Origin: a virus | Taxonomy: Duplodnaviria; Caudoviricetes | Reading direction: 5' to 3' (one strand) | IMG/VR virus record: IMGVR_UViG_3300032277_000042 | Location: 1-33,903 of that record | DNA: 33,903 bases | In this document: positions 15,603-33,903 of the stretch, piece after piece | Layout of the letters: every line of letters begins with the position of its first letter | Position numbering within the stretch: position 1 is the stretch's first letter | The notes under the pieces: generated by a model | What the model was told of the DNA's origin: nothing | The model's input: the letters and a program-made list of their open reading frames with translations, nothing else | Database searches by the model: none | Program-made: the position numbers and the translations under genes

Positions 15603-15789
15603 TTGGCTTTTTCCGTACTGTTTTTTTCGGGGCTTCCGGCTCAACATCGCCCAGCACGTCGAATGCGTCGGGTGACATGGCGATAATTGAATTATACTCG
15701 TCGTTGGTCAGTGTGACCTCGTCACCGCGCTCAATGCGGCCCTTGCTGCAAATCACTTTGATGCGTCTTACGCGCAGCCGTTTAAGCAT
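15583..15789 (-). CDS. Small capsid-adjacent hypothetical protein
   Basis: GAGGT RBS before ATG 15789; basic C-terminal tail. Confidence 0.65.
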   Translation of the reverse strand: MLKRLRVRRIKVICSKGRIERGDEVTLTNDEYNSIIAMSPDAFDVLGDVEPEAPKKTVRKKPNVKYAH

Positions 15790-15800
15790 GTGTATACCTC

Positions 15801-15841
15801 TGGTCGTTGTAAATCGGGGGCGCAGCAATGCCACGCCCCCG
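15801..15841 (-). terminator. GC-rich hairpin after the major capsid gene, followed by the ATTTACA-N3-ACCA motif
   Basis: CGGGGGCG...CGCCCCCG stem at 15815-15841; weak U tract. Confidence 0.55.
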
Positions 15842-15848
15842 GTTGGTT

Positions 15849-16808: not shown

Positions 16809-16820
16809 ATCGTTGTTCCT

Positions 16821-17798: not shown

Positions 17799-17804
17799 CG
17801 TTGC

Positions 17805-18047
17805 TTACCTGTTTTTTCTGCGGCTTTTCAGCGTCTCTGCGACAATTGCCGCGTCGAGTTGCGCCTCAACCAGATCCAGCGCTCGCAGGATTGCGTGCGC
17901 ATCTTCGCGCTGCTCGATTTGCTCGGCAGTGCTGGAACGAAATGTCAGGATTTGTGCGTCGCGCACGTCGTTCATAAATTGCAGAAATGCTGTGTCTAAT
18001 TTTAGACGTTTAGCATCTTCCGCTTTAATTTTGACGTCGGTTGACAT
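17805..18047 (-). CDS. Small head-module protein between portal and scaffold
   Basis: Helical ~80 aa ORF, ATG at 18047; typical position. Confidence 0.7.
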   Translation of the reverse strand: MSTDVKIKAEDAKRLKLDTAFLQFMNDVRDAQILTFRSSTAEQIEQREDAHAILRALDLVEAQLDAAIVAETLKSRRKNR

Positions 18048-18050
18048 AGG

Positions 18051-18080
18051 AAATCCCGGCAAATCGCTTCGCCGGGATTT
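18051..18080 (-). other. Hairpin covering the ribosome-binding region of the downstream gene
   Basis: AAATCCCGGCGAA-GCGA-TTTGCCGGGATTT on the minus strand (GNRA loop), 3 nt before ATG. Confidence 0.65.
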
Positions 18081-18134
18081 TAACAGAAATACTATATGTA
18101 GTAAAAATTAGACGCTAAACACTATATGTTGATT
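18077..18134 (-). promoter_or_regulatory. sigma70-like promoter with tandem NrdR-box-like palindromes
   Basis: TTTACT (18105-18100)-N17-TAAAAT (18082-18077) with extended TG; boxes ATACTATATGTAGTAA (18089-18104) and ACACTATATGTTGATT (18119-18134), 30 bp apart. Confidence 0.68.
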
Positions 18135-20239
18135 TATTGGCGTTGTTGGCCTTGCGCTACGCCGGTCAGCGTGCGCAGCTTGTCTTGTTCCGCTTTGACC
18201 CGCGCCACGTCCACGGCAGTGCCATATTTTCCATATGTTTGAGCTGCATCAACCATCAGAGATTGGGCCATTCTATCCCGCGCCAGATCGTCCTGCATGG
18301 CCATTTCTTGCCGTTTGCGCTGTTCCTCGGCCATTGCTTTCTGACCGTCTAGCTGCAGCCTCGCCATGTCGCCCTGCATCTTGGCTTGCGCTTTCATTTG
18401 TTCTGCCTGCAAGAATGCCGCGTTGGGATCTTGTTGACCTTGCTGGGCTTGCGCTTGTTGCTGCATTTGCAACATCTGTTGCTCAATCTCTTCAGTGATT
18501 GGCGCAAAATATCTGTCTGCATTGCGCACGCCTGACGCGGCCAAGGCGTCGGCCAATGTGTTGCGTATGTTGGTCAGGCTGACTAGGCCGTTCATTGGGC
18601 CATACTGCTGATACACCATCGTTTGCATTTGCAGTGCTTGCTGCAGCGCCGCTTGTTTTTCTTTTTCGCGCCCGGTGCCAAGGCCAACGTTCACTTGGAT
18701 GTCCATCGTGCTGTCCCACACGCGGACATCCACCTTCTGGAACCCTCCAGAAATTCGCATCATTTGCTCTTCGTCGCAATTCTTGATCATCAAGCGCAGC
18801 ATAATGCCAAACAGATCTTTTACGCCGTCCGCCAGGTTGCGCGTGTACATTTCAACTTGCGCAGCGGCAGCCTCAACCGTGGCGCTAATGCCAGCGGCGG
18901 CGGTGCTTTGCATTGCGTCCGGGTTCAGCGCCATGTTTTGCGTGACGCCAGTTTTCTGCTCAACCAACCCATCCAGATAGGTGAGGGCGCTTAACGTCTG
19001 CCCCGCCACAAATGGCGTTGTCAGCTCTTGCGCCTGACCCATTTGCTGCATTCTCACCACTGAGCCAATTTCCGAGTTTAGCAAGTCATCAATATTAACA
19101 CCTGGTGTCACAGCTATTCTAGGATTGTTCACCATCGCCACGTTATCCAAGATGCCACGCAGCACGCTCGTAGCCGCATCCTGGTCATTCATAACAATCT
19201 CGGCTAGTGAGCGCCCGAAAAATGAATGCGGTTCTGGGTCAATCTCCAACTTGGCAAACGGCAGCTCGTCGCACGGCTCAAAGTCCAGCAATTTGTACGA
19301 CGTGCCGCCCAGTACAAACTTGTGCAGCACCGGCGTGTCGGTGTCGATGCTGAGGCGCATGTAAGCCTCCGTAATCGTGACCGGCTTCATCTCATCGGCG
19401 TCAGCGTCCTCGGCACTACTGGAATTGCTGTACCCGGTGCGCGCGAAATCTTCCTCTTCATCGCCGTTAACGCCATTATCAAAGCTGTCGAGGTCCATCA
19501 CTTGTTCTGGCAAAAAACCCATCCCCAAGACGTCGCCCATCCGCATTTCCGTTCTGTGCGCGACGATATACGCATCAGACAGGGATCTAGCCGTATCGTT
19601 GACGAAAAATTCCTCTGGCGGGACTGACTCAACGCACAGCTCGCCGCGCGTTGATTGACGGCTGAGTTTCACCGCATGCACCGGCGCTTCCACTGACATG
19701 CCCATCTCGTCAATGGCGGCGGTCATTTCGGTGGTTTGCTCAATGATTTCCACGCCATCTTCGCTGGCCAGCATAGTCAATTCATCGTCGTTTAGGTCGG
19801 TGTACGTGTATATCTCGGCGTGTGGGTAATTCTTGTAATACGCCTTAACAATGCCCTGCTTTTTTACCAGTGCGTCATGAAAAGCATCGCCCAAGATTTT
19901 ATGACCGTTTAGCCGCTCAAATTCGTGATGCATGAAGGCTGTTGCCTGCTCTGCGTGTGCAGTCTGATCAGGCCGGCGCGGCACGTATTCCACTGGGCGT
20001 GACGTGCTTAAAAAGACCCGCATGAGGCTGGGTTTAACCGCTCTCACCACGTCGCGCACTTTGGTTGCCACGACCTTGCTGCGGCCATCCTCGTGGCCGA
20101 TATAAACCTGCCCGTCGTAATAATGCTGCGCCTTTATGCGCTCGTCGCGCAGCTCTGCCTCAACAAATTCTACCGCCTCTTCAACGGCGTTTTGAACAAT
20201 TGCCTCTATTTGCTCGCGGGTCTTTGGTTCTGTTTGCAT
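18134..20239 (-). CDS. Portal protein (P22-like)
   Basis: YYDG...GRSKVV, VPPEEF, FFGRSLAE, TGV, VNVGLGTG, long Gln-rich C-terminal barrel; probable start at 20239. Confidence 0.92.
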   Translation of the reverse strand: MQTEPKTREQIEAIVQNAVEEAVEFVEAELRDERIKAQHYYDGQVYIGHEDGRSKVVATKVRDVVRAVKPSLMRVFLSTSRPVEYVPRRPDQTAHAEQATAFMHHEFERLNGHKILGDAFHDALVKKQGIVKAYYKNYPHAEIYTYTDLNDDELTMLASEDGVEIIEQTTEMTAAIDEMGMSVEAPVHAVKLSRQSTRGELCVESVPPEEFFVNDTARSLSDAYIVAHRTEMRMGDVLGMGFLPEQVMDLDSFDNGVNGDEEEDFARTGYSNSSSAEDADADEMKPVTITEAYMRLSIDTDTPVLHKFVLGGTSYKLLDFEPCDELPFAKLEIDPEPHSFFGRSLAEIVMNDQDAATSVLRGILDNVAMVNNPRIAVTPGVNIDDLLNSEIGSVVRMQQMGQAQELTTPFVAGQTLSALTYLDGLVEQKTGVTQNMALNPDAMQSTAAAGISATVEAAAAQVEMYTRNLADGVKDLFGIMLRLMIKNCDEEQMMRISGGFQKVDVRVWDSTMDIQVNVGLGTGREKEKQAALQQALQMQTMVYQQYGPMNGLVSLTNIRNTLADALAASGVRNADRYFAPITEEIEQQMLQMQQQAQAQQGQQDPNAAFLQAEQMKAQAKMQGDMARLQLDGQKAMAEEQRKRQEMAMQDDLARDRMAQSLMVDAAQTYGKYGTAVDVARVKAEQDKLRTLTGVAQGQQRQ

Positions 20240-20240
20240 T

Positions 20241-22199
20241 TCATTCTCTTCCCACAAGCGGCGCGGCGGTTAACACGCCTGCCGTCGTTAAAAATTGCAG
20301 TAACTTTTGCGACGCCGTTGGATCGTCAATGCGGCGCGCCTCGGCCACCAGTTCGCGCACCAGTTGGTCGCGCTGCGGCCCCTGCATAGATAGCATTTCG
20401 CCCAGCTCGCGGTTGGCCTTGCTTTGGCGCGTGCCGTACACGATTTGATTCATTATTTCGTTGACTGGCCGGTCAAATATAGCGCGCTTCAAACGGGTGC
20501 CAGGTCCGGGCGCTCTGTCGGTGTCCACGTCGCGGAAATCGCCTAACGCGTCAGCCGCCTCGCGGCGCTGCCCAGTTTGCGACCCCTCAATAACCTTGGT
20601 GCGTGTGTTGCTAAATGCTTTTTCTGCGCGCAGCGTTTTCATCACCGCCGCCGCGTCTGCGTCTCCAATAATCATTGCCAGTTTTTCAGCGTTAAAGCCT
20701 TTTTCAAACTGGCCCCAAGCTGCCGCCGCATCATTGCGTGACATACCCATGAGGTTAGTGATATATTCCCGCGCGCCTTTCTTATAGGCGTCGCGTTGGG
20801 CGTCCGACATGCCGTCCAGCATAACGCGCATTTCGGCGGGCCGCAGGGCCGTAGCGGCAGATCCGGTAAACGCCTTACGCCCGTCCTCTATAGCCCGCTC
20901 CATTGCCATGTTGTTTGCGTAACCTGTGCGCGCCGTTGAGTAATTTGGCACCGCATCAAGCATTTCATCAATATCGCCCAAAACTGGCTTTAGGCTGGAA
21001 ACCTTGTTGCCTTTACCGGCGCGTGTGGCCTCGGATAGCGCATCACTTAAAGCGGCGCGGGCGTTGTGCAGCTTGGCCGCTGAAACGTCGCTACTTTTGC
21101 CCAAATCCTTTAACACCGTGCCAAGCGCATTTTTAACGTCGGAAGAAGCATCACCGGCCAGACTTAAAATGCGCTGCCGGATTGGATTGACGTCAAACGT
21201 CATGCCGCTCTTTTTGGCGGCCTCGTACATCGGCCCCAGCACGTCGCTGCGCTCGGCGGCAAGCTCGGTGCGAGCTGTAAACGCCGCGCCTGGCTCGTCA
21301 ACGCGCTTGGTCATTTCTGCATCAATGCGCCCGCCAGCGCCTTGCGCTCGCTTGGTAATTGATTGCTGCAGGATATTGCCGCCTTCGCCCTGCATCGATG
21401 CCAAACCTTGCGCCAATCGCTGGGTTGGCCCTGGCACGTCGGCCAGCGTGCCCTGCGGCCCAATGCTGTCTAAATATGCCTGTATATCCTGCCCACCGGC
21501 CTCGGCGCTGTTTGCACTGCGCGCCATAAGTTGGCTTGATTTTGAGCCGTAATTGCCAACGCCGCGAAACTTGTTTTGAATGCCGCGCCAGCCTGCGCCA
21601 ACGATTTCGCCGGCAACCGGGGCCACTGCGCCAATGCTTGCGCCCACAGCCGTGCCCACGGGTGGAATTTGCTTAACGCTGTCAACAAAGCCATCGCCAG
21701 ACATAAATTCTGGCAGCGCCACGCCGGTGGCACCAAGGCCAGATCCAATGCCCATTTGCGTGACAAGCTGTTTGCCCTGCATGAGTTTTGATACGCCGGC
21801 GGCGGGTATAGCTGCAGACGCAATTGACCCAGCGCTTTGCCCTTTTGCATATTGCTCTGGGGCCAGCACTTGCGCGGCCATATCTCGTTGCCGCACCAGA
21901 TCGCGATACTTGGTGTACGCCTGTTTTGCACCTTCAATATCGCCTTTTTTAAACAAATCGGTGGCAAATTTATACGCGCCGACAATCTCATCAGCGGCGC
22001 TTAGCGATGCGCCGGCCTGCATCCCGCGATAGGACGCAATGGTTTCAATTTCGGCTTGTTTGGCCGTTTTGGTTTTGCCCCGGTATTTGGCAAGCGCCTT
22101 GCGGCCATTCTCGGTGATTGTGCCGTTGGCCTCTTGTCCCTCCAGAACCCTCACCGCCGTCAGGATGCGCTGACTTTCTTCGTATGTCATCTCAGCCAT
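20241..22199 (-). CDS. Putative DNA ejection / internal virion protein
   Basis: 652 aa Ala/Gly-rich helical protein with central hydrophobic segments, last gene of the internal-protein cluster. Confidence 0.7.
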   Translation of the reverse strand: MAEMTYEESQRILTAVRVLEGQEANGTITENGRKALAKYRGKTKTAKQAEIETIASYRGMQAGASLSAADEIVGAYKFATDLFKKGDIEGAKQAYTKYRDLVRQRDMAAQVLAPEQYAKGQSAGSIASAAIPAAGVSKLMQGKQLVTQMGIGSGLGATGVALPEFMSGDGFVDSVKQIPPVGTAVGASIGAVAPVAGEIVGAGWRGIQNKFRGVGNYGSKSSQLMARSANSAEAGGQDIQAYLDSIGPQGTLADVPGPTQRLAQGLASMQGEGGNILQQSITKRAQGAGGRIDAEMTKRVDEPGAAFTARTELAAERSDVLGPMYEAAKKSGMTFDVNPIRQRILSLAGDASSDVKNALGTVLKDLGKSSDVSAAKLHNARAALSDALSEATRAGKGNKVSSLKPVLGDIDEMLDAVPNYSTARTGYANNMAMERAIEDGRKAFTGSAATALRPAEMRVMLDGMSDAQRDAYKKGAREYITNLMGMSRNDAAAAWGQFEKGFNAEKLAMIIGDADAAAVMKTLRAEKAFSNTRTKVIEGSQTGQRREAADALGDFRDVDTDRAPGPGTRLKRAIFDRPVNEIMNQIVYGTRQSKANRELGEMLSMQGPQRDQLVRELVAEARRIDDPTASQKLLQFLTTAGVLTAAPLVGRE

Positions 22200-22201
22200 C
22201 G

Positions 22202-23656
22202 TTAATTTCCATTCAATAGTAAATCTTCAGCCTGTTGGGACGTCATAGGCTCTGCAGCACCGCTGAAACTGTTGAGAATATTTTGCACTGCCTGCGGTAT
22301 AGTTGAAACGCTCTCAACCTGTTCAAGTTGTTCAATCGCCTGCTCAAACGTGATGCCGTTTCTGGAATACTGTCGGATAATTGATTTCTTCTGTATGTTC
22401 ATTTCGGCTTTGGCTTGCATGACTGCAATAATCGCTTGGTTTGCCTCTGGTGTGTTTTTCAAACTGCCCAACGAGTTGAGCATTGCGTTAAATTCAAGGT
22501 CAGACGTAGCGCCAGATCCTTCAACGCGCAGAGTTGGGGCTATGCGGTTAATAATCGACTGCCGCAACGCGGATACGTCGTTAAATTCTGGGAATGCCAT
22601 GGCAAACCGTCCGGCCAGCGGGCCAGTTGGCGCAAGCGGTGCAAGCTCTTGCAGCGTCTGTAAATCTGCAGCCGCATTAGCGGCGGCGCTGCCGGCGTCC
22701 ATCATGTTGTTAAATGACTCGCCCTGTTTTTCCATCATTTTCTTGCGCAAAACAGCGTCAGCGCTCTCAGGGCCTGGCATGTTGATTGAGCTGCCAGACT
22801 TAACCATTGCTCGCGCATCCTCTGGCGATAAGCCTTGCTCAATCCAAAAATCATAATTGTCTTGCTGCACCGGCACTTTAGGCGTGGCCATGCTTTTTTG
22901 CATAATCGCGCCCAGCACCTGGCTCGCCTGCAGTTGACCCGCCTCAATCATGTCGGCGTATTGGCCCATGCCGTTTGCGCGCAGATATTCCACCGTTTTA
23001 TTTCGTGAATTTCTCTGCGCGCGCTCTTGGCGTCGCCCTTCCATCATTCCCGCAAAATTTGGATCTGGCCGCAGCGTCATTGAGTTAAGGCCCACCGCCA
23101 AGCGGCCAGCCAAGTCCTTAAAGCTGTCGCGTTGATAAAATCGTTGCCCCGTTTCGCCAACGGCACCAGGTTGCATTTTCTGCAAGCCGAATTGCTCTAA
23201 TAGGCCGCGAGGCGCTTGCGGTTGTCTTGGCAGCATCGGTGCGGCCTCCTGTTTTTGGTTTGCTGGGCCATAGGCTGGCCCTTTATACCCGGCCCACGCG
23301 CCGGTGCCCTGCGTGTCGTAGATATAGCGGCCAATGCGGTCCTGCAGGGCTGGTGTCATTAGCTCGTCGCCGCGCAGCCCAAGGCCGCGCTTGGCATCGC
23401 GCAGGGTCGTGCCGACCACCTGATATGCGCCCATTGGTGTGGCAACCACGCCCTCCGGGTTGGCCATTTTAACATAGTTGCCATAGCCGGATCTGGGCTG
23501 CGCAAAGTCCAGCGCAGCGTCTACCGTCATGTCAGTAATTTTAACATCGTCAAACAGGCCGCCGGGGCGGTTCTGGTAATTAAAAAGCGCGTTATAATCG
23601 CCACCGCTTTCGCCGCGAAAAATGTATGGTTTGATTGTGTTAAAATCTGGGCGCAT
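22202..23656 (-). CDS. Internal virion protein with N-terminal lysozyme-like domain
   Basis: GESGGDYNA...TPMGAYQVVGTTL...TPALQD...AWAG lysozyme-superfamily pattern; C-terminal GSGATSDLE motif. Confidence 0.78.
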   Translation of the reverse strand: MRPDFNTIKPYIFRGESGGDYNALFNYQNRPGGLFDDVKITDMTVDAALDFAQPRSGYGNYVKMANPEGVVATPMGAYQVVGTTLRDAKRGLGLRGDELMTPALQDRIGRYIYDTQGTGAWAGYKGPAYGPANQKQEAAPMLPRQPQAPRGLLEQFGLQKMQPGAVGETGQRFYQRDSFKDLAGRLAVGLNSMTLRPDPNFAGMMEGRRQERAQRNSRNKTVEYLRANGMGQYADMIEAGQLQASQVLGAIMQKSMATPKVPVQQDNYDFWIEQGLSPEDARAMVKSGSSINMPGPESADAVLRKKMMEKQGESFNNMMDAGSAAANAAADLQTLQELAPLAPTGPLAGRFAMAFPEFNDVSALRQSIINRIAPTLRVEGSGATSDLEFNAMLNSLGSLKNTPEANQAIIAVMQAKAEMNIQKKSIIRQYSRNGITFEQAIEQLEQVESVSTIPQAVQNILNSFSGAAEPMTSQQAEDLLLNGN

Positions 23657-24564
23657 TAGGTGGGCACCAAGCTGGCCGCTAATTTAAGATAGTCAAACAT
23701 GCCAGGCTGATACTCTTCCGTTTGCGTATTCGATACTGGCGCTGGCGTGCTGCCCAAAGCATTATTCACGTATTGCGTTGATGCGCCGGGCGCGCCGGTG
23801 TAGTTGCCAAATTGGCCCCTTGCCGCTTCAATTAGAGCTTGCTGTATTCCCTGATCGATAATGCCATACCGCATCTGGTTGGCCTCAATTGTTTGGCCTG
23901 CGTCAAATGATTGTTGCCCCATAGCCGCGAGCTGATCGGCTGCGCTCAGCATATTTGTATTGGCCGCCGTTTGTTGGTCTACATCAAACTGCGCTGCGCC
24001 GAGCGCGGTGTTAAACCCGTCTTGTCGCAGCCTTGAAACTGCATCATACGCTTTATCCGCGTACAGCCCGCGCGTTTCTGCGCCTTCAATCCCGTGCCTT
24101 GATCCGCCAAACGCGCCAGCGTTAGACGCAGCGAAATCCATGTCATTTAGCGACATGCGTTGACCTTTCATTAGATCGCGCATTGTCGAGTCAACAACAT
24201 TTTGCGTGTAAGGATTGTAGTAAGCATCCATGCCTTGTGAGGCGTTCATCGGCGTATATGTTCCCGCCGCGATTGTGCCCGCCATGCCGAGTTGTAGGGC
24301 GTCTGCAGCGGCTTGGTTTGCGTTAAATCCGCCGGCCACTGGAGCTGCCGTTGTCGCTGGGGCTGCCCCTGTCGCTGGGGCTGCGCTTGCGTTTATGCTT
24401 GTCGCTGGAGCGGCGTTGTAGCCCGTTTCAGCTAACAAATTTACCGGCGTATATTTAACAGGTCCGCCGCCTAATCCGCCTTTATTAGCGCCCGCAGGCG
24501 CGCCGCCTGCGTTGCCTTGTGCTAAAGTTGGCGTGCCGCTTCCGTATCCCGATGCTAAACCCAT
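23656..24564 (-). CDS. Putative DNA ejection protein
   Basis: YYNPYTQNVVD...AGAFGGSRHGI motif, Ala/Gln-rich. Confidence 0.72.
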   Translation of the reverse strand: MGLASGYGSGTPTLAQGNAGGAPAGANKGGLGGGPVKYTPVNLLAETGYNAAPATSINASAAPATGAAPATTAAPVAGGFNANQAAADALQLGMAGTIAAGTYTPMNASQGMDAYYNPYTQNVVDSTMRDLMKGQRMSLNDMDFAASNAGAFGGSRHGIEGAETRGLYADKAYDAVSRLRQDGFNTALGAAQFDVDQQTAANTNMLSAADQLAAMGQQSFDAGQTIEANQMRYGIIDQGIQQALIEAARGQFGNYTGAPGASTQYVNNALGSTPAPVSNTQTEEYQPGMFDYLKLAASLVPT

Positions 24565-25169
24565 TATTTAAACTCCTTTGACGAGTAATCAGACCAGCCG
24601 TCATCAGGGTGACTGCCCCAGCCTCCGTCAGTTGCGCCGGCTGTGTTGCTTGGGTCTAACGTATCAATCGCGTTTAGCGGAGCGTTCCAAACGTGCGTTG
24701 TGTAGCCCTCTCTGTTTGTATAGTTATCTTGCTCTGCGCCCGCCGTGTTTTGCGCTATTCTTTGGGTTTTAACCACTGGCTCGACGTAGGGGGCCACGAC
24801 GTTGCCGAATAGCGCATCATAGCGCGCGGCCTGCTCTGGGTGCCGTGCAATATATTCGGCAAGCGCTTGGTCGAAAATTGGTCCTGATGAATATCCGCGC
24901 ACACCACCGGCGTACTCGGTTGGCGCATCCATCAGCGTGTTGACCGCTGGGGCCGCCATTCCAAACGCGCTAGCGGCGGCGCGGTTATTGTCCATCGCGG
25001 CCAATTGAAACGGCGTTAGCGCGGCTACATCTGGCCCGTAGTAAGGCTGATAGCCAAGCTGCGCCACTTGTGCCGCGCGATGCAAATTTTGCTTTGCGTA
25101 ATGCTCAATGTACGCTGGTATTGTGGATTCTTGCGTAGTTGTGCTTGATCCGCTCTTGCCGCCACTCAT
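24564..25169 (-). CDS. Putative DNA ejection / internal virion protein
   Basis: MSGGKSGSSTTTQ...IPAY...PYYGPDVAALTP.Q N terminus. Confidence 0.7.
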   Translation of the reverse strand: MSGGKSGSSTTTQESTIPAYIEHYAKQNLHRAAQVAQLGYQPYYGPDVAALTPFQLAAMDNNRAAASAFGMAAPAVNTLMDAPTEYAGGVRGYSSGPIFDQALAEYIARHPEQAARYDALFGNVVAPYVEPVVKTQRIAQNTAGAEQDNYTNREGYTTHVWNAPLNAIDTLDPSNTAGATDGGWGSHPDDGWSDYSSKEFK

Positions 25170-25170
25170 C

Positions 25171-25530
25171 TTATATATCCTTCACGTAGCTCTGGTGAAG
25201 CGGCTTCCAGCCGTGTTCCGCCAAAGGTTTTTTCCAGCCAAATCGGCCTGTCATTGTTAGCGCGCTGCAGCCCTGCGCTTTGGCCCAAGCGACCACGTCG
25301 GGGTGCATGCCCATAATTTCATCAAGCGTGCCGCCGCCGAGAAAAACGTTGCACACTTTGGCGCGCGGATAGGTGATAAGCTCAGTCACCAAGCATGAAT
25401 CTTTGGCCGGCCAGAGCTGCATGGTGCCTTTATAAATGCCCTCGCAGACGTCAATCCAATCGTGCGTGCCGCCGCTGTATTTCAGCGCGGCCTCAATCCA
25501 AGGCTTGCAGCGCTCCAGCTCGTCTTTCAC
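25171..25530 (-). CDS. GNAT-like protein of the podovirus tail/ejection module
   Basis: WAKAQGCSALTMTGRFGW motif; GTGA-coupled start at 25530. Confidence 0.7.
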   Translation of the reverse strand: MKDELERCKPWIEAALKYSGGTHDWIDVCEGIYKGTMQLWPAKDSCLVTELITYPRAKVCNVFLGGGTLDEIMGMHPDVVAWAKAQGCSALTMTGRFGWKKPLAEHGWKPLHQSYVKDI

Positions 25531-25883
25531 CAGGCACCCCCAGTTAGCGCAGCGCGCGACCAAATATTTGTTGAGCCGTCATGCGCCGCCGTGCAGACGT
25601 AAATATGCGTTGTGCTGACGGCCACCATGCCAGCGGTATCGCCGGCAGCGCCAACGCTGGACGTTGGCACGGCGCGCTTAATGATTATCTCGCGGAATGC
25701 GTCGCCCACCGAAACAACGGGATAACCAGCGCGCGACCACATTATAATGCCGTCATCCTTGGCGCTTTCGTTGCCGGTTTGTTGTGTCAAATTTGACTTG
25801 TTTTGGCTTAAAAACGCGGTGACGCGGTTGGCCCAAATGCGCCAGTCAGATCCGTAGGGTTGCGGGACACGATATTGCTCCAT
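25527..25883 (-). CDS. Small virion-module protein
   Basis: Coupled to both neighbours; PTSSVGAAGD.AG...HIYVC...W.RAAL..W tail-associated motif. Confidence 0.68.
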   Translation of the reverse strand: MEQYRVPQPYGSDWRIWANRVTAFLSQNKSNLTQQTGNESAKDDGIIMWSRAGYPVVSVGDAFREIIIKRAVPTSSVGAAGDTAGMVAVSTTHIYVCTAAHDGSTNIWSRAALTGGAW

Positions 25884-27364
25884 TAGCGGCGACCCCCGGC
25901 AACAACGTCCAGCCGGTTAATCCCAACGCGCCAATCAGCCAAGCGCGCGCCGGTCAGGCGCATCCGCATTTGACGGCCAGTAAAGCGCATGGACGTGGGG
26001 TTAGACATGCTGTACGGGCCATACGAGCGCTCAGTGCCATTCGGAGCAAATCTGGTTTTAAACGTGGCCGTGACGTCGCCTTGCGTTTTTTCGTCGGGCA
26101 GCATTTCGGTAACGCTGGCCACATTCTCTCCGTTGCCCAGCATAATCGGCCCAGTTTCGGCAAATGGCGTCAGGCCGCTATACGCAAAACTCACCTCATG
26201 CTCGTATATTTTTTTATCCGCAGGATCGCACATAAGTGGCAAGGCAAAAGCTCCGGCGTCCGCGCCGGCAGTGCGGGCAAGCTCGCCAATGTACCAAGTA
26301 TTCTCAACAAAATTGTACACGACGTATCTGTCATTTTCGGTGCTAGCCTCGGAGGGGTAAAACCAAAATATTTCGCCGTAGCCCTGCAGCGGCATGGCAA
26401 ATGTTTTGCCAATTTGGGCGCGGTTGATGTCGGAAAATACATAATCCGAAACATCACAAGGCAGCTCTTGCACGTTGTTCCCGTTAAACGCGTAAAAAGA
26501 ATTTAAGCCCATCCAGAAAACGCCAGCATCAACGCTGGCGTAAGCCAAATGCGCGGCCAATCCGCAAGATTGCCCAACTCGGTCAATGCTGAAAACATAG
26601 GGCGGACCTTGATAAGTTACGCTGTGTGCGTCTGTGCTGGTTAAAATTATCGTTTGGTTTTGCGTTCGCACGCCGGCCATAATTTTGCCGGTTGTCTCTA
26701 GCGTTATGTCGCCCGCTTCGTTCGTGGCGCTTGGTGCCCAAACTGTGTTGTTTTCCCTATCGCACCAAGAAATTTTGCGGCTATTCCCGTCTGCACCCAG
26801 CGCCAGCAAGAAACGTTCCTGCGTGACTACAATGCTTTGATTATTTGTTGGAGCGTTGCTTAACACAGCCGCCGGCACCGAGCCGTTCAATTGCCATTCA
26901 TATATTTTGCCGTCATCACGATTGCACGCAACCAAGTATTCACCCCAAGGTTGCAGCGCCCAGCTTGTGGCCGGCTCAATGCGCGTTGATTCCAATCGCG
27001 GCGTGCCGTAAAATTCTTGACCATATAACCCGCCGCCATAGCCGGTTTGTGCCGCCCCATCTTCACGGCCAGCGACAAGCCCGGCTGGTGTAATATCTGA
27101 TTGGGTGCCAAGCGTGTTATAGGCGTATAATTTATTATATGTTCCAAGGGCAATTCGTCTGTCCAAACTATTGTCCGACCACGCCATCATGCCGCGCACT
27201 TTAGCGGCGGCAGCGGTGGTGGCTCGGATGCGCCACCCGCCAATTGGGCGAATAGTTCCATCCACCCAACGCACCAAATTGGCGTCACGCCAACGGCCCA
27301 CGCTCTGCAAATCTGTACCGTTGCGGTAAACGCCCGGCGGTATTTTAATGTCAATTAAAGCCAT
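25883..27364 (-). CDS. Tail nozzle / P22 gp10-like stabilization protein (tail tubular protein B-like)
   Basis: ~493 aa beta-rich, W-repeat propeller-like; EIFWFYPS...DRYVVYN, RFTGRQ, G.R terminus. Confidence 0.82.
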   Translation of the reverse strand: MALIDIKIPPGVYRNGTDLQSVGRWRDANLVRWVDGTIRPIGGWRIRATTAAAAKVRGMMAWSDNSLDRRIALGTYNKLYAYNTLGTQSDITPAGLVAGREDGAAQTGYGGGLYGQEFYGTPRLESTRIEPATSWALQPWGEYLVACNRDDGKIYEWQLNGSVPAAVLSNAPTNNQSIVVTQERFLLALGADGNSRKISWCDRENNTVWAPSATNEAGDITLETTGKIMAGVRTQNQTIILTSTDAHSVTYQGPPYVFSIDRVGQSCGLAAHLAYASVDAGVFWMGLNSFYAFNGNNVQELPCDVSDYVFSDINRAQIGKTFAMPLQGYGEIFWFYPSEASTENDRYVVYNFVENTWYIGELARTAGADAGAFALPLMCDPADKKIYEHEVSFAYSGLTPFAETGPIMLGNGENVASVTEMLPDEKTQGDVTATFKTRFAPNGTERSYGPYSMSNPTSMRFTGRQMRMRLTGARLADWRVGINRLDVVAGGRR

Positions 27365-27366
27365 AG

Positions 27367-27422
27367 GCACAACATGTTGTTACAGACGTGAAAATATTAC
27401 CACATGTTGTAGTGAATGCCAA
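27367..27422 (-). promoter_or_regulatory. sigma70-like promoter with tandem NrdR-box-like palindromes
   Basis: TTGGCA (27422-27417)-N17-TAATAT (27399-27394) with extended TG; boxes GCACAACATGTTGTTA (27367-27382) and TTACCACATGTTGTAG (27397-27412), 30 bp apart. Confidence 0.72.
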
Positions 27423-27430: not shown

Positions 27431-27706
27431 CTATTCAGGCGGTGTTGGCCATGTAACCTCGCCCGGCAATTGTTCCGGCACGTCGCGCAATGCTTGCCGA
27501 TAGGTGCGCCACTGGCTTGACAGGGCTACATCGCTTGACGCGCGCCAATCACATGCAGCTAATTTGGCATCCCGCTCCTTACGAACTTTAGCGGCATTCC
27601 TGTCATTTGCACCGTCTTCCCATGCTTGTTCTTCAGCATCACGAGCTATTTCCTCGTCTACTGTGAATTGAACACGCACACCGTTTTTATTGTGAAATCG
27701 TGGCAT
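27431..27706 (-). CDS. Tail fibre assembly chaperone
   Basis: VRKERDAKLAACDW...WRTYRQALRDVP...WPTPP motif; GGAG RBS before ATG 27706. Confidence 0.88.
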   Translation of the reverse strand: MPRFHNKNGVRVQFTVDEEIARDAEEQAWEDGANDRNAAKVRKERDAKLAACDWRASSDVALSSQWRTYRQALRDVPEQLPGEVTWPTPPE

Positions 27707-27716
27707 GTCAGTCTCC

Positions 27717-28799
27717 CTATGTAATTCCATATAATTTAAAGACACCCGACGTTATATTTCCGTTTTGGGCAAAGAAATTAAAACCTGACAACGCTGCTGT
27801 TCCATTAGTATATCCCGCACCGCCACTTATGAATCTTATCCTAGTTAGGTCAGTGTCTTTTGCGCTCCCAAAATAGTCCCAAGTTTTTGTTAGGGTTGTG
27901 GAAGTTGGGTTATAAAACCGCAAAACAAAATTTACTGCTCCGCTCGACGCATTCTCCATATTTTGAACAATATTGAAATATGACACACCACTTCCGCTAG
28001 ACACGCCCGATCCTGTTGTTGAGCCGCTGTGAGTGTTAAATGCAAAAGAGTCATAATAGCCGTGCGTTGTCATAATGCTTCCGCCAATCTCCACTCTGCC
28101 TCTTAATGTTTGAGTATCGTTTGCTGGTATTAAACCTATTACGTGTATCTCATATACTGAATAAGCAGTTGTTATCAAACTTGAATCACCTATCGAAACA
28201 GTCGCGTCATTGTTAGCCGTTACTGTCTGCAGTAGATTATAAGCACCGCCGGCAGCGGGTGCAGTCCAACTCAAATCTGTGCCGTCAGAAGTTAGAACGG
28301 TGTCAGCCCCCCCAGCCGCTAGTCGCGCGGTTGCGCCGCTTGCATCCCCGTAAATAATCGACCCGCGCGTAATTGCGTTTAGTTGGTTAATTTCTGCACC
28401 AGTTGATAAAATCTGCGTGCCGCCCAGCGTCAGCGTGGTCAAGGTCAGCGCACCGCTTGGTAGTAGCGGCTCAGAGCTAAACGTGACAATCCCGCCGTCG
28501 GCAATGGTCATTGCCGCATCCCCGTCAGAAAAACTGATTGCCTCTGTTTGGATGAGCGGCGAGGTCAGGCTAGTTGAGCCTGTCAGCGTGGTGCCAGTCA
28601 TTGCCGCAGGCGTTGCCCCGCCAATGACCGCGCCGTCGATTGTGCCCGAATTTATGTCTATGCCGGTGACGGCTGTGCCGCCGCCCAGGATTGAGTCAAT
28701 GCTGTCTAGCCCAGCGTTGATTTTGGTGCCCCAACTATTTTCTGACGCTCCGACCTCTGGCTTAACCAAGCTGTAATTCGTTGTGTTCGTATCGGCCAT
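27717..28799 (-). CDS. Tail fibre protein
   Basis: N-terminal anchor [23 protein letters not shown]; Gly/Thr/Ser-rich shaft; C-terminal [13 protein letters not shown]; followed by chaperone. Confidence 0.85.
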
Positions 28800-28814
28800 T
28801 TTTTTACCTCAGAT

Positions 28815-30665
28815 TTATGCGGCAGTTTGCCATATGTCCGCCGGCGTCTCAACATTGCCGCCGGACTGCGGGGTCCAGATGTCAGCGTCAGACACGGCAA
28901 CCGCTGCCCACGGGTCAGCCCCATCGGCGGCAACAGGTTCCCAAAGCAACCTGCCGGTGGCCGTGGCTGCGCACGACGCAGTCGTGGCAGCTTGGCCGTC
29001 GCGGAAAAACCCGGCCAGCGTTTCGGCCGAAACCGCGACCTGCGGCGACGCGCCAGCGTCAATGAAATTCCTAGCGACAATTGTTTGCGTCACATCCAGG
29101 CTCGCGCTGATTGACGTGTAACGAGTGATAATTAACGTAATGATGCCAAGCGAAAGCGTCGCAGAAACGCCTGAAGTTACGCCCGTGTTCGCATCACCGC
29201 TGGCGGTAGGAGCGCGCGTGCTTAACGTTGCCGCCAAAGTTGTCGCCACCGCGTTTGATGTGGCGGATTGGCTTGTTACTCCAAGCGTAATTGTTGAGCC
29301 AAGGGAGTCTGATATAATTTCAGCAACGTTGATTTTAACGTCGGCCAGCCCGGTTGAAATTGTTGCCAGCAAGGTCGGCGCGAGCAAAGTATTGTCCGAG
29401 CGTGTTGAGATTTCGTCGCCCAACGAAACAGTAGCGGACACGCCCACCACAGGCACGTCAACGCCGATTGGGCCGGCCAATGTGCCTAGTGATATTGAAA
29501 TGTTAAATTCGTTCTGCAATGGGCCGGTGTCAAACGGGCCGGGCAAATACGGGTAAACTGCGCTATCAGCCGATTGGTTGGCCCGCGCCACCAATTGGAC
29601 GCGAGACGGGTTTAAGTACCAAGGCGGATCTGGCGTTAGCATCGTGCCGATCTGAAAGCCGATCAAAGGCTGCGCAACGTTTGCCTGCGTGCTGCCCAAG
29701 GCCGCAGCAATGCCAAAAGAGGCTGGGGTAAACCCAACGTTTGCTTGAACTGAGCCAATTGATGCAGTCACTAAAAGCGTGTGCTCTTGAGACACCGGCG
29801 TGCCGTCAGCATTGTGCGTTGCGGTGGTTTGTGGCTGCAGTTTGAGGCCGTACAAAACCCACGCCGCACCATTTGTTAGGCTAGTGTTGTCAGTGCCAAA
29901 TGTGCCGACCGATACGGACCCGATTTCAAGGCCCTTGCTCGGTGAACGGTGGAACAGCTCACGCGATTTGTTCTCGCCGGGCAATGTAATATTGCCCACC
30001 GAGGCGTTTATTAAGCTGTCAAAAAATGTGTCGCTGTCTGTTGGGTCAAACGTATTAACCGTTTGGACTTGCCCAACGATTACGCTGAATAAGTTGGGAT
30101 CAGTCGCCGGGAATGTTAAAGTTGCAACCAGCGGGTCAGCAAGCGATGATATTGTTGTCGCACCGTTTGTTATCGTTTCAGGCAAGTGCCGCAAATGCGG
30201 CGGCTGTTGATATTGCGCAAGACCGGCGTCATTGACCGTTGCCGGAAATGTATAATCGCCGTTTGTGAGCGGCGCAAAAGCGCCTTGGTAGGTAATAGGC
30301 CCATCTGTAATTGTGGCCGTTATCCCAAATTTTTCAGCGTGCGGATATGTGCCGTTCCAAGTTGGCTCAATTGAATTTGTGCTCTGCTCTAAATTTGGGT
30401 CAAATCCAAGAATATTATAGTTTTCAAAAAATATTCTGGGGTGCTCGTTGTTCCGAAACTCGCCAACGCCGTCGTTGTTCGGGTCATAGAAAAATGTTGT
30501 ATTTGGTTTTCTAATTGCAATTTCAGATATTTTTGCGTCAGCTTTTGCCGATATCGCCCCAAGAGAAACTGTCGCCGCAACGCCCGATAAGACTTGATTT
30601 ACAATTGGTCGCGCAACGCCTGACCCGCCAAGCGTGGCGGCTGATATTGGGGCAAAACCTAGCAT
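28815..30665 (-). CDS. Virion structural protein, fibre-like
   Basis: MLGFAPISAA N terminus, repeated GVSATVSLG-type beta motifs, C-terminal W-spaced repeats. Confidence 0.65.
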   Translation of the reverse strand: MLGFAPISAATLGGSGVARPIVNQVLSGVAATVSLGAISAKADAKISEIAIRKPNTTFFYDPNNDGVGEFRNNEHPRIFFENYNILGFDPNLEQSTNSIEPTWNGTYPHAEKFGITATITDGPITYQGAFAPLTNGDYTFPATVNDAGLAQYQQPPHLRHLPETITNGATTISSLADPLVATLTFPATDPNLFSVIVGQVQTVNTFDPTDSDTFFDSLINASVGNITLPGENKSRELFHRSPSKGLEIGSVSVGTFGTDNTSLTNGAAWVLYGLKLQPQTTATHNADGTPVSQEHTLLVTASIGSVQANVGFTPASFGIAAALGSTQANVAQPLIGFQIGTMLTPDPPWYLNPSRVQLVARANQSADSAVYPYLPGPFDTGPLQNEFNISISLGTLAGPIGVDVPVVGVSATVSLGDEISTRSDNTLLAPTLLATISTGLADVKINVAEIISDSLGSTITLGVTSQSATSNAVATTLAATLSTRAPTASGDANTGVTSGVSATLSLGIITLIITRYTSISASLDVTQTIVARNFIDAGASPQVAVSAETLAGFFRDGQAATTASCAATATGRLLWEPVAADGADPWAAVAVSDADIWTPQSGGNVETPADIWQTAA

Positions 30666-32144
30666 TTAACCATCCCAAGTCGCCATCTGCGGATATGAAT
30701 TATGTGCGGTTTCCATTTCTGCGTCAGTCAGCGAAACATCCCACATGGCGATAGCTCTTAGCTGTATTGTTTGGTTGTAGCCGGCAGTGGGATACTGGAA
30801 AAAGGTCCATGTGGTGGCAGGATTGTAGTTACGCATGAAAAAGCTGTTAAATTTGTTTTGTTCAAGATGGGCCTGCCCCTGAGTGGGGGTAGGATTAGAA
30901 TTTCCATTTACTAAATATTCAGCCGTAAGCCCAGAGTGCGCATTTACGCCACCAACCATTCCTGACCCAGTGTTGTCAAAGTAACCAGCATAGCTATTTG
31001 GGCCAACTGACAAAAATATTTGTTGAAAATCACTTGCCACGGGGTCAACTAATGGATCAAATATAAACAAGATTGTTTTAACATCAGTAGACAACGCATA
31101 ACTAATTTGGCTTTGGTTATCTCCAGTTTCCCACACTGGCACGTTTAAATTTCCAGATGCTTTATAACCAGCGGTTCCACCCACATTGGTCCAAGTTAAG
31201 TCTCTATTGTTCCCAGACAAATCAGACCAAGTTGTCCCAGTGCCACTATAGCTACTAGAGTTTTCCATATCCCAATGGCCCCATAGAGCGTCAACTTGTG
31301 GGAAAAATCCGAGAGTATATATGGAGCTTCTCGCAGTCGTGTGTAAACCGTCAGTCGCTTTATATCTTAATGTGAACTCTCCAGCATCAGAAACAGTCGT
31401 GGACGGTGTAATAGTAAAAACATTATTGGCCTGAGAAATTGTTGCCTGTGCCTGATTTGACGGGTTGGTGTCATAGGAGTACTCAATAGGAAACCCCTCT
31501 GGGTCAGACGCTACAACAGTTTGAACCGTTGCAGTACCGTCTGAAGCTAAAACACCAGTTGCAGGGGGTGATGTTGTCCACTCTGGTACAGCGTTTGTAT
31601 CAGTGTAAATTCGATCCCACTCAGTACCATCATAAATATAAAGCGATTTTTGGTCGGTCACAAAGGCCAGATCGGTCACGCTGGGCGACCCCGGCAAATT
31701 TGCATAAGTTGAAACGTTTGTAATCCCGCCAGACGGGCTGGCTGGCTTCCAAGTGCTGGCCACCGCGTCCCAAGTCAGCGCCTGACCGGCGCTTGGCGAC
31801 GTGTCCGATACGTTTGCTAAGTCAGCCAAATATTGCGCAACATCATCAGCAATCATCGTAAAAAAGCAAACCGCCGCCGCACCAGCCGAAATCGCAGAAT
31901 TGTCAGAATTTGACGAATTAAGCGGCGTGCGGGTCATCGTGTACGTGCCGCCAGACAGCCCAATTACGCCGGTGCCAACTTCATATTCGTTGTTCTGCTC
32001 AAGTGTATAGCGCAGTTCGTCGCCTGCGCCCACGGATTGATCGGCCAAGCTCTCAAACCCCGCGACGGCATTCGCCCCAAACGTAATTGTGCCCGCCCCG
32101 CCGGACGCGACCGGCATTTTGCATCGGTTGATGAATTTAACCAT
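30666..32144 (-). CDS. Fibre / receptor-binding protein with Ig-like and ConA/LamG-like domains
   Basis: EVGTG N-terminal domain; LADLANV...GQALTWD repeat; ASDPEG Ig-like segment; SYSGTGTTWSDLSGN lectin-domain motif. Confidence 0.78.
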   Translation of the reverse strand: MVKFINRCKMPVASGGAGTITFGANAVAGFESLADQSVGAGDELRYTLEQNNEYEVGTGVIGLSGGTYTMTRTPLNSSNSDNSAISAGAAAVCFFTMIADDVAQYLADLANVSDTSPSAGQALTWDAVASTWKPASPSGGITNVSTYANLPGSPSVTDLAFVTDQKSLYIYDGTEWDRIYTDTNAVPEWTTSPPATGVLASDGTATVQTVVASDPEGFPIEYSYDTNPSNQAQATISQANNVFTITPSTTVSDAGEFTLRYKATDGLHTTARSSIYTLGFFPQVDALWGHWDMENSSSYSGTGTTWSDLSGNNRDLTWTNVGGTAGYKASGNLNVPVWETGDNQSQISYALSTDVKTILFIFDPLVDPVASDFQQIFLSVGPNSYAGYFDNTGSGMVGGVNAHSGLTAEYLVNGNSNPTPTQGQAHLEQNKFNSFFMRNYNPATTWTFFQYPTAGYNQTIQLRAIAMWDVSLTDAEMETAHNSYPQMATWDG

Positions 32145-32159
32145 ATCAAAATACCCGTT

Positions 32160-32645
32160 TTAGTCGAGTCTCAGAATACTTGTACTACTTCCAGGCGCAG
32201 GGAATTGCAGACTGAAATCTCCCGCAGTGGCCGAAACGGTCCCTCCAAATGAAAATACAGCGATAACATCGTTGTTTGGATCGCCGGCATTCGGGTTATA
32301 CAAAATTGCTCCGTCAGACACGACCGTCACATTAGCAAAAACTGCGTCATCAAAATCGATTATAGCCGTGGTGCCGTCCATTTTTGGAAAGGTGTTGGCG
32401 ATTGCTGCCGTAGCCCCGTTGCCTGCGCCTAAAACATTGCGCGAGTATGCAGCGTCATAGGACGCGTGACTGACCTCGTCCGTGCCAACCGCGCCGGAAC
32501 TTACCGTGGCCGCCCCATAATTTGTCGAAAGGGCGCTCTCCTCTTTCAACAGAATAACTTTCATATCTGTGTCGAAATCGTGGCTCCCCTTTAAGAGCTG
32601 CAATTTAAACGCGTTACTCAAAGAAGTGGTGATTGTGCCTGCCAT
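32160..32645 (-). CDS. Small virion structural protein (paralog 3)
   Basis: FKLQLLKGSHDFD...GAILYN...FGGTVSATAGDFSLQFP. Confidence 0.75.
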   Translation of the reverse strand: MAGTITTSLSNAFKLQLLKGSHDFDTDMKVILLKEESALSTNYGAATVSSGAVGTDEVSHASYDAAYSRNVLGAGNGATAAIANTFPKMDGTTAIIDFDDAVFANVTVVSDGAILYNPNAGDPNNDVIAVFSFGGTVSATAGDFSLQFPAPGSSTSILRLD

Positions 32646-32655
32646 GTTATTTCCT

Positions 32656-33048
32656 CTAGTTTGCCGTTAAGGTCAGATCACCAATTTGGATTCTGAGCTG
32701 GTCGTTGGTTGTGATTGTTTTAGCGGCTGTTAGCTCGCCCACGATTAAGCAGTTTCCGCCGGTTGCGGCGTCCATCAATTTGTAATGCGTAACCGCGCCT
32801 TGGGTGCCGGTGGCAACGGGAAACGTAATTTCCGACGTATTGCTGATTTGGCCATTTGCGGCATTAGTGCCAAAAACGACTTGCTGGCGCGCGTAGCCGT
32901 TGCCTGAAATTTCCGCCACCGCCGTGCCGGTGTCAGTGAAGTCGCCGCCACCCAGCGCAATATAAACCGCCGCAGGGGCCGTGAAGTTGGCCCGCCCGGC
33001 AATTGCGTTTAAGACCGCCAATTCTGCGTAGTCCGATAAGGCTGCCAC
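32656..33048 (-). CDS. Small virion structural protein (paralog 2)
   Basis: LSDYAE..VLN...EISGNGYARQ...FPVAT...DAATGGN...K.I...DQLRI..GDLT. Confidence 0.78.
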   Translation of the reverse strand: MAALSDYAELAVLNAIAGRANFTAPAAVYIALGGGDFTDTGTAVAEISGNGYARQQVVFGTNAANGQISNTSEITFPVATGTQGAVTHYKLMDAATGGNCLIVGELTAAKTITTNDQLRIQIGDLTLTAN

Positions 33049-33051
33049 GTT

Positions 33052-33432
33052 TTACTCCAAAGTTATGTCGAGCTGGCCCGACATGATGCGAAAATTATCA
33101 CCGACGCCGACATTCTTAACCACCGTCAGATCTGCGTGCGCGATTTGATTGCCGCTGGTTGCCGCGTCGTACACTGCCACCGACGTAATATCGCCCCACT
33201 CGCTTGTTGCGGTGGGCCACGCTAAAACGCCGGAGTTGGTCGCCAGATTGCCGGTCACAGAAAGCGCAACGCTTTGCCGCGCATAAGCGCCGCCCGAAAT
33301 CTCAGCGCCAGGTGTATCGTCGGTATTGCTGGACGTTTGCAGGCCGACATACCACGCCGTTGGGCGTGTTGCGGCGCTTGCCGTAAACAAATAATTCAGC
33401 ACATTTGTTTCATATGTGTCCGATAGTGACAT
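33052..33432 (-). CDS. Small virion structural protein (paralog 1)
   Basis: LSDTYE..VLN...EISGGAYARQ...WPTAT...DAATSGN...K.V...DNFRI..GQLD; TGATG-coupled start. Confidence 0.78.
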   Translation of the reverse strand: MSLSDTYETNVLNYLFTASAATRPTAWYVGLQTSSNTDDTPGAEISGGAYARQSVALSVTGNLATNSGVLAWPTATSEWGDITSVAVYDAATSGNQIAHADLTVVKNVGVGDNFRIMSGQLDITLE

Positions 33433-33903
33433 CAATACGCCCGCAGTTTTAACCTTCGGCCAGAGCCGCCATATTTAGCGGCCTCGCTAGACGTGTTTAT
33501 ACCAGATATTGCGTTGGCGTACAAAGTTGACCATACAGATAGACGTGCATCGTCCTTCAAGTACGGGGCACTATGCGCGAGTGCGCCATACAAATACGCG
33601 TCAGGAAAGTACGTCAGGATAAAATTTGACGTGTTGCTGTCTGACAGAGCCTCGGCGCGCGCGTTATAATAAAGCTCAACAGTATACTCGCCGTCCGGCG
33701 CTGGGAAAAGCTCAAACCTGCCCGCGACAAACGCGTAATAGGCGGGGCTGCCGGACGTGTTTAAATTGGCCGCCTTGCGGTCCAGCAATTCGGCTTGGCT
33801 GATAATCTCAAGCGGTGCGGTGGTGCCAGACGTGACCTGCAGCCGGATTGTCTCAAGATAATCCGCCGGGATTGGCACGTATTGCGTGGATAACGTCGCC
33901 ACG
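33432..33903 (-). CDS. Head-tail adaptor (tail tubular protein A-like), 5' truncated
   Basis: P.DYLE...G.PAYY...P.PD..Y...YY...LSDSNTSN.IL...PDAYLYGAL..SAPYLKDD.R pattern. Confidence 0.8.
   Translation of the reverse strand, partial: VATLSTQYVPIPADYLETIRLQVTSGTTAPLEIISQAELLDRKAANLNTSGSPAYYAFVAGRFELFPAPDGEYTVELYYNARAEALSDSNTSNFILTYFPDAYLYGALAHSAPYLKDDARLSVWSTLYANAISGINTSSEAAKYGGSGRRLKLRAY

Follow-up and report, generated by a model that had tools for sequence, protein, structure and literature searches.

The window, by which we mean the whole 33,903-nt stretch analysed here, is a 33.9-kb viral record, 93% complete, of an SU10-like podophage that is present in marine, seawater and mat metagenomes. 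The minus strand carries nearly all genes, among them those for terminase, for a portal, capsid and adaptor of SU10 type, for fibres and for an endolysin, together with a replication module of primase-helicase, ssDNA-binding protein, exonuclease, methylase and resolvase, and a short plus-strand block carries a serine recombinase and a MarR-like gene. The gene blocks that matter for the present analysis are as follows, where sites A-D are the intergenic sites described below and the names ‘nozzle’ and ‘ejection’ are ones that we infer from synteny.

196-1650, minus strand, terminase large subunit (terL)
1601-2119, minus strand, probable terminase small subunit (terS), assigned by position, with no family match
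12751-18047, minus strand, block behind site C, including small ORFs
13127-13756, minus strand, endolysin, site C block
15849-16808, minus strand, SU10-type major capsid, site C block
16821-17798, minus strand, scaffold, site C block
18134-27364, minus strand, block behind site D: virion gene, ejection-type genes, then portal
18134-20257, minus strand, SU10-type portal, end of the site D block
25883-27364, minus strand, virion structural protein of 493 aa (phrog_3287), the putative nozzle gene
27431-33903, minus strand, adaptor and fibre-type genes, connected with site A through the part of the genome that the record lacks, as seen in the relatives L083, L085 and L087

Searches for the ribonucleotide reductase (RNR) large subunit, for nrdR and for the NrdR zinc ribbon found none in the 93%-complete record, in agreement with the sequence-only reading that preceded this work, which had noticed no nrd gene in the window. 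The portal has its best named match, at 44% only, in Octadecabacter phage DB2, a roseobacter-group phage, and a roseobacter-type host is our guess. We found homologues of the nozzle gene, with 28-50% identity, in 7 of the 401 alphaproteobacterial genomes (a tally that includes the unpublished G112), and nrdR was found in all five alphaproteobacterial genomes with a distant nozzle-gene homologue, though the phage's own host may differ from these.

Nine 16-bp boxes make up four pairs, spaced 30-31 bp start to start, plus one third box. The pairs head four late blocks, namely terminase, adaptor and fibres, nozzle to portal, and capsid to lysis. Their positions, together with the promoter elements predicted beside them, are listed below (matrix ranks refer to the scan described further on).

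59-105, no strand, site A box pair: strong box 59-74 and weak box 90-105, 31 bp apart
64-56, minus strand, site A extended -10, under the strong box 59-74; the same extended -10 as at site D
2553-2617, no strand, site B boxes: 2553-2568 and 2584-2599, 31 bp apart, and a third box 2602-2617
18089-18134, no strand, site C box pair: 18089-18104 and 18119-18134, 30 bp apart; matrix ranks 4 and 5
18077-18105, minus strand, site C predicted sigma-70-type promoter TTTACT-17-TAAAAT, with TG; box 18089 lies over its -35 and spacer
27367-27382, no strand, site D downstream box, separated by 2 bp from the start codon (ATG, 27364) of the 493-aa virion gene; matrix rank 3
27397-27412, no strand, site D upstream box, covering the spacer of the promoter and the first bases of its -10; matrix rank 1
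27394-27422, minus strand, site D predicted sigma-70-type promoter TTGGCA-17-TAATAT, with TG before the -10

The spacings are thus 31 bp for 59/90 and 2553/2584 and 30 bp for 18089/18119 and 27367/27397, leaving linkers of 15, 15, 14 and 14 bp at A, B, C and D. The sequence-only reading had described 16-bp palindrome pairs at four loci, and all nine boxes lie where it placed them; its match of 19 out of 20 positions between 53-72 and 27391-27410 was reproduced on recomputation. Eight of the nine boxes have C4, A6, A8, T9, T11 and G13 all present, the ninth, box 90, being a weak one with G at position 14 instead of 13. Core sequence CNAYATRTNG occurs nine times in the window, eight times in the four intergenic regions and once inside an ORF at 10096. 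In 3000 dinucleotide shuffles of the 1,419 bp of intergenic DNA the mean count was 0.089 and the maximum 2, against 8 observed. Because this pattern had been picked after the sites were seen, a leave-one-locus-out test was added, in which the held-out pair ranked 1 of ~33,840 positions at all four loci. A repeat finder run over the whole window did not place the boxes in its 20 largest families. No box was found in the early intergenic regions 6139-6200, 6843-6887, 9788-9900 and 12009-12750, which upholds the earlier assignment of the boxes to packaging and virion genes, the pairs being confined to late blocks. One strict box without a partner, at 10093-10108, inside ORF 9901-10407, has matrix rank 12 and is probably due to chance.

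The operator of the bacterial repressor NrdR is well defined. As given in the available excerpts of one report, the NrdR box is a 16-bp partial palindrome with conserved C4, A6, A8, T9, T11 and G13 and an AT share of at least 63% between C4 and G13; both boxes are required, the linker is 15-16 bp of free sequence, one box of a pair may have a 9-bp C-G distance, a G at 12 geometry abolished NrdR binding in E. coli nrdEF, and NrdRs bind heterologous boxes across species (PMC13584703). Excerpts of a second report describe binding with linkers of ~14-17 and 24-27 bp and a trough at 19-20 bp, a 14-bp linker weakening the binding of four NrdRs 2- to 17-fold relative to the best spacer (PMC12051234). 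Loaded with dATP and ATP, an NrdR tetramer sits on two boxes at a distance of three helical turns, where it covers the site of RNA polymerase; the ATP-only form does not bind. According to the accessible part of a third report, NrdR binds DNA only with both dATP and ATP (or ADP) (PMC9110341).

Measured against the operators of RNR operons (E. coli nrdAB, nrdHIEF and nrdDG; S. coelicolor nrdAB and nrdRJ) as described in excerpts of the same three reports (PMC13584703, PMC12051234, PMC9110341), the phage sites have the same six positions and palindrome, the same two boxes about three helical turns apart, and the AT content of at least 63%; an overlap with the RNA-polymerase site is predicted at A, C and D. 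Across all nine boxes the AT share between C4 and G13 is 0.625-0.875, against the 63% limit. Box 90, with its G14, corresponds to the 9-bp C-G variant, which a pair tolerates in one of its boxes, and the 14-bp linkers of C and D fall within the bound range, but in its weaker class. Unlike the bacterial operators, these candidate operators precede packaging, virion and lysis genes and not nrd genes, two of their linkers have 14 bp, and there are four sites in 34 kb. A strict definition of the NrdR regulon takes RNR or nrdR as the target gene, whereas the genes downstream here are terminase, virion and lysis genes.

For a scan that did not depend on the phage, we built a matrix from 22 boxes. 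They come from 11 of the 29 nrdJ promoters of alphaproteobacteria, the likely host class, that could be oriented, one of the 30 loci having been left out for want of an orientation. These boxes were picked by a published regular expression, so that they owe nothing to the phage but do depend on the consensus. The matrix ranks the phage boxes 1-6, 9, 10 and 60 in 33.9 kb, rank 60 being box 90, and D and C are the two best matrix pairs at any spacing of 20-60; the B and A pairs rank sixth and seventh, just behind a coding-region pair at 33466. A 30-bp spacing occurs in one of seven alphaproteobacterial nrdJ pairs with both boxes strict (range 30-33). We also scanned bacterial DNA with the 31-bp pattern, which gave ~3,200 stretches; for 80 loci with flanks, 135 ORFs were scanned. 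The direct neighbour was RNR (29) or nrdR (4) at 33 of the 80 loci, one of the RNR calls being an ATP-cone alone, and the other neighbours included alphaproteobacterial parA (5) and a terminase small subunit (1). The sequence-only reading had called the boxes NrdR-like and suggested a weight-matrix scan as a check: six boxes stand at ranks 1-6 of the nrdJ matrix, and the resemblance is borne out, as far as letters can tell, by the conserved positions, the pairing, the bacterial nrd loci and the spacing profile given below. We conclude that the boxes are very probably bound by host NrdR, and that the pairs are likely to be its operators.

The placement of the boxes relative to predicted promoters differs among the four sites: consensus promoters overlap the boxes at C and D, an extended -10 does so at A, and at B a consensus promoter was looked for and none was found. 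At site D, the earlier description of one box overlapping TTGGCA-N17-TAATAT and the other standing beside the start codon proved exact, the latter ending 2 bp before the ATG. This predicted promoter would drive the nozzle gene, the ejection-type genes and then the portal. The second D box occupies the place of a GAGG ribosome site seen in box-less relatives. The nozzle leader (27364-27390) has no Shine-Dalgarno sequence. Site C precedes an 80-aa ORF, the scaffold, the major capsid and lysis genes, and here the box covering the promoter -35 is the downstream box of its pair. Between the site C -10 and the ATG lies a hairpin with a 10-bp stem (18048-18078), and a different hairpin is found at the same place in the relative G015. 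Site A comes after terL and heads a block that runs off the end of the window and that reaches adaptor and fibre genes in relatives. Site B lies ~430-500 bp upstream of the probable terS, its third box being 18 bp away and resembling the interleaved arrays of the viral contigs L217 and L468. Between site B and terS, at 2204-2228, there are three head-to-tail 9-bp units like NrdR half-boxes, among G/C runs, which are possibly part of a packaging start region. The partner box lies upstream of the -10 at site A and downstream of it at site D, so the pair is not mere promoter sequence.

Relatives allowed us to follow the pairs over a range of divergence. At site D we compared 79 nozzle relatives with upstream DNA. 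Both D boxes and the 30-bp spacing are kept in all ten relatives with at least 86% identity, and the promoter -35/-10 is invariant in nine distinct close-relative sequences, in which the DNA upstream of the -35 diverges; among the 69 relatives at 63-69% identity, the D pair was found in none. In G015, a complete syntenic relative (portal 70%, nozzle 56%), pairs are kept at A (31 bp) and at C (30 bp, with a diverged linker), and an extended -10 equivalent to the site C promoter lies in the same place, but there is no pair at the nozzle site, and the region upstream of terS is cut by contig ends. A full-quality pair stands at site A in L087/L088 (G015), and in L082, L083 and L085 the upstream box of this site has decayed, with a G at position 12. 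In the relatives L083, L085 and L087, site A heads genes that lead to the adaptor and fibres, and the site B pair is kept in L081, L082 and L084. Three prophage-like regions in nrdR-bearing alphaproteobacteria have no pair. Conservation of boxes and spacing in related phages, which had been named as a check on the idea, is therefore only partly observed: it holds in ten of ten close relatives and at A and C in G015, and it does not extend to D in G015 or to the 69 distant relatives. Since the pair is missing from the latter and from the three prophage-like regions, such phages can do without it.

These comparisons bear on the possibility that the boxes arose by chance or as a side effect of an extended -10 promoter motif. 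At A and D, the TG.TA of the extended -10 does fall on box positions 11-16, and the distant relatives have similar TGTTATAGT/TGCTATAGT there, without the pair. Such an origin fails to explain the palindromic left half or a partner box on either side of the promoter, the 30-bp spacing kept with a diverged linker in G015, and the results of the shuffles, the leave-one-out test and the spacing profile, and we regard it as most improbable.

The spacing profile was obtained by searching viral contigs for the same pairs. Because in-frame coding repeats inflate spacings that are multiples of three, we used a 37-bp control and counts outside ORFs of at least 100 aa. Viral totals were 490, 500 and 620 at 30, 31 and 32 bp and 350, 66 and 140 at 36, 37 and 41 bp, the 37-bp figure coming from a complete scan and the others being estimates. 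The share of matches outside ORFs was 35/119, 91/123 and 86/121 at 30, 31 and 32 bp and 8/120, 13/66 and 57/121 at 36, 37 and 41 bp, which corresponds to an estimated ~144, ~370, ~441, ~23, ~13 and ~66 matches, respectively. This is a three-turn peak, a trough and a four-turn shoulder, as measured for NrdR itself in the excerpted data of PMC12051234. Additional third boxes near viral pairs are not enriched (25/117, versus 38/120 in the 36-bp control).

In a neighbour survey of 126 outside-ORF matches at 30 and 31 bp, 86 had enough flank, and 102 of 104 neighbouring ORFs were scanned. A named neighbour was obtained at 37 viral loci; two belong to the clade of the present phage, and the other 35 were counted. 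Clear head or packaging genes adjoin 17 of these 35 unrelated loci (terS 6, terL 6, portal 1, capsid 2, scaffold 2), and the rest comprise weak head or packaging matches (5), tail or lysis (2), a piece of nrdD (1) and replication, regulation or other genes (10). The counts are descriptive, as a single family supplies four of the six terL loci, choosing the longest ORF works in favour of terL, and a background of random sites is absent. Among cultured phages, no intergenic pair was found in SpSL1, T7, Octadecabacter phage DB2 or the capsid region of BcepMigl, and upstream of terL there was a pair in none of HTVC023P, HTVC027P, DSL-LC04 and 023Pt_psg01, the last having a single box. The viral contig L237 matched no named phage. 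Arrays of 4 and 6 boxes precede terminase genes in L217 and L468, with spacings of 31/32 and 30/42/32, interleaved by 15-bp steps.

Who binds the boxes was approached from the side of the phage proteins. A phage-coded NrdR was considered and set aside: full-length and zinc-ribbon models were both without a match in the record, and the CxxC proteins of the window are a DnaJ-type finger and the primase instead. The NrdR zinc ribbon (PF22811) was found neither in the record, nor in the complete relative G015, nor in 45 box-bearing viral records, of which 14 are at least 90% complete (zinc ribbon in 0 of 14). With no NrdR-like gene found in the phage or in the other 45, the binder is probably host NrdR, and a host protein would be the simplest reader of a motif common to unrelated phages and bacterial nrd promoters. 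The earlier reading had itself named a phage protein as the alternative binder, and the search of the record turned up no NrdR-like one.

A phage-coded repressor of another kind might nevertheless use the palindromes as a private late operator that merely resembles the NrdR box. Candidates are the RHH protein (9629-9787), the MarR-like protein (11097-11603), a winged-helix ORF and a gene in the missing 7%. That RHH and MarR-like regulators are encoded in the window, that some phages, such as the distant relative G021, encode a zinc-ribbon-only NrdR-like protein and that the 14-bp linkers are suboptimal for NrdR all favour such a binder. Against it, unrelated phages and bacterial nrd genes share both the motif and its helical profile; G015 keeps boxes although its MarR-like protein has no more than 24% identity; the divergent early region beside the RHH gene has no box; the phage with the G021 zinc-ribbon gene has no pair; and the zinc-ribbon match is absent from the 45 box-bearing records. 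This makes a phage-coded binder very doubtful. The G021 protein itself (L524:1501-1788) has 95 aa and an NrdR zinc ribbon, apparently without the ATP-cone, and it could be a nucleotide-blind or dominant-negative mimic of NrdR.

Taking host NrdR as the binder, the boxes are probably real, functional operators on phage late genes, and we hold with moderate confidence that their main purpose would be the gating of these genes by the host repressor. On entry, a single phage genome would be bound by host NrdR and its late genes would be off, and meanwhile the box-free replication genes would be read. Replication would then consume dNTPs, lower dATP and multiply the operators, four pairs per genome, whereupon NrdR would let go and the packaging, virion and lysis genes would come on together with host RNR. 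Late transcription would in this way be coupled to replication through a metabolic sensor of the host, with no late activator of the phage's own, and titration by the four pairs on each new genome is a possible amplifier of the switch. The -35/-10 overlap and the layout of one pair per late block favour gating in this phage. Speaking against it are the C and D linkers of 14 bp, one short of the usual 15-16, the decayed upstream A box in three relatives, the lack of a recognisable promoter at site B, and the pairs of phage KpV767, which lie in terminal repeats and not at host-type late promoters.

The main rival to gating is that the pairs act as decoys, soaking up host NrdR as genomes multiply and so derepressing host RNR for a phage without its own; any effect on late genes would be incidental, and the boxes would be intergenic merely because room is there. 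KpV767 (NC_047772), a T7-like Klebsiella phage, speaks for this. It has strict 32-bp pairs in both terminal repeats (120/152 and 40335/40367) and a third pair (14128/14160) before gp25, at the position of T7 gene 4.7; the pairs extend over 120-167, 14128-14175 and 40335-40382, and six of its eight strict boxes are in pairs. Since this phage has its own RNA polymerase, a repressor at host-type late promoters would be of little use to it, which makes a decoy or roadblock the more plausible role there, and KpV767 is the best laboratory model for the decoy idea. The RNR large subunit scored over the cut-off in only 4 of 39 box-bearing viral records, some viral sites have arrays of 4-6 boxes (L217, L468), and our site B has three boxes and no promoter was found for it, all of which would suit a decoy. 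On the other side, three of the four pairs in the present phage overlap -35/-10 elements, the four early intergenic regions named above are free of boxes, and the place of the relatives' GAGG ribosome site, taken by the second D box, is a poor one for a mere decoy.

Transcription in pneumococcus infected with phage SpSL1 touches both readings. According to excerpts of that study, three operons preceded by NrdR boxes are up from 10 min onwards, and at 50 and 90 min, when SpSL1 late genes peak, no host genes are induced more strongly than the NrdR-controlled operons (PMC6755750). SpSL1 thus turns on the host regulon with no intergenic pair of its own, so host RNR can be derepressed in the absence of phage boxes; this speaks against the decoy, backs what the timing model presupposes and makes titration unnecessary. 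Timing is further favoured by the overlap of boxes and promoters here, and the terminal-repeat pairs of KpV767 fit titration; by sequence, the two are inseparable. As the main purpose of the boxes in the present phage, a decoy seems rather unlikely to us.

Another way to read the operators is as a go/no-go gate on host growth, in which NrdR would keep late genes silent while the phage is a prophage or is stalled in a non-growing host with high dATP or ADP, and would not time the lytic cycle. Excerpts of PMC9110341 propose NrdR as a repressor at low DNA synthesis or when energy is short, this phage and G015 have a serine recombinase and MarR-like or RHH regulators, and 8 of 45 box-bearing records were classed as proviruses. 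The relatives of the recombinase, however, are named as Pin-like invertases, and lysogeny of the phage is putative. Such a gate is compatible with the timing model, and as the principal role of the boxes it seems clearly improbable.

Host repressors have been used by phages before. The temperate phage GIL01 reads host physiology through host LexA operators on its own promoter, as the accessible parts of two reports describe (PMC4551915, PMC6182141). There, LexA reports DNA damage and acts on the early, lysogenic promoter P1 with phage helper proteins, whereas the present phage would have dATP/ATP sensed, and this at its late promoters. What is already known is the NrdR operator itself and, from LexA and GIL01, phage use of a host repressor. 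SpSL1 resembles our proposal in that NrdR-controlled genes are on in lytic growth, most strongly late, and differs in that these are host genes only, the available excerpts of that report proposing no NrdR control of phage genes (PMC6755750). In the literature that we searched, by titles and the beginnings of abstracts and mostly non-subscription, NrdR operators on phage genes are not described; the sequence-only reading, aware of no report of NrdR control of virion genes, had said the same.

Phage T4 ties its late genes to ongoing DNA replication by means of its own late sigma factor, a co-activator and the sliding clamp. By comparison, the present phage would achieve replication-coupled late expression with a host repressor and the nucleotide pool. 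To our knowledge, neither a late sigma factor nor an antiterminator or RNA polymerase can be recognised in many small tailed phages. We lean slightly towards the view that many unrelated phages have been wired independently to host NrdR, as a late-gene switch in some and a terminal-repeat decoy in others: the switch would replace a late sigma factor or activator, and the decoy would serve T7-like przondoviruses in raising the host's DNA-precursor synthesis. If gating is true, a host repressor that reads dATP delays virion genes at the cost of a few base pairs, burst timing is tied to the growth state of the host, and NrdR, known almost only at RNR genes, extends to a phage-host interface seen in viral contigs by the hundred. 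The means for a direct test are at hand: NrdRs bind boxes of other species (PMC13584703), nrdR deletions exist for E. coli and Caulobacter according to excerpts of PMC12186491, and a cultured T7-like phage has perfect pairs.

Several further groups of pairs were seen. Terminal-repeat pairs similar to those of KpV767 occur in L766, L774, L776, L778, L786, L796, L801 and L820, and another T7-like group (L760, L813) has a pair among early genes near a kinase gene. In Streptococcus-type prophages (L170, L171, L186, L188, L229, L272, L793, L823), a conserved pair lies in the repressor/excisionase region and precedes a small gene, and L186 matches 118 Streptococcus phage records in part. On the bacterial side, 31-bp NrdR-type pairs lie upstream of parA in five alphaproteobacterial genomes (L551, L573, L585, L592, L599), and in L569, a 4-kb contig of a Rhodospirillaceae genome bin, a 31-bp pair stands 23-54 bp before a terminase small subunit gene.
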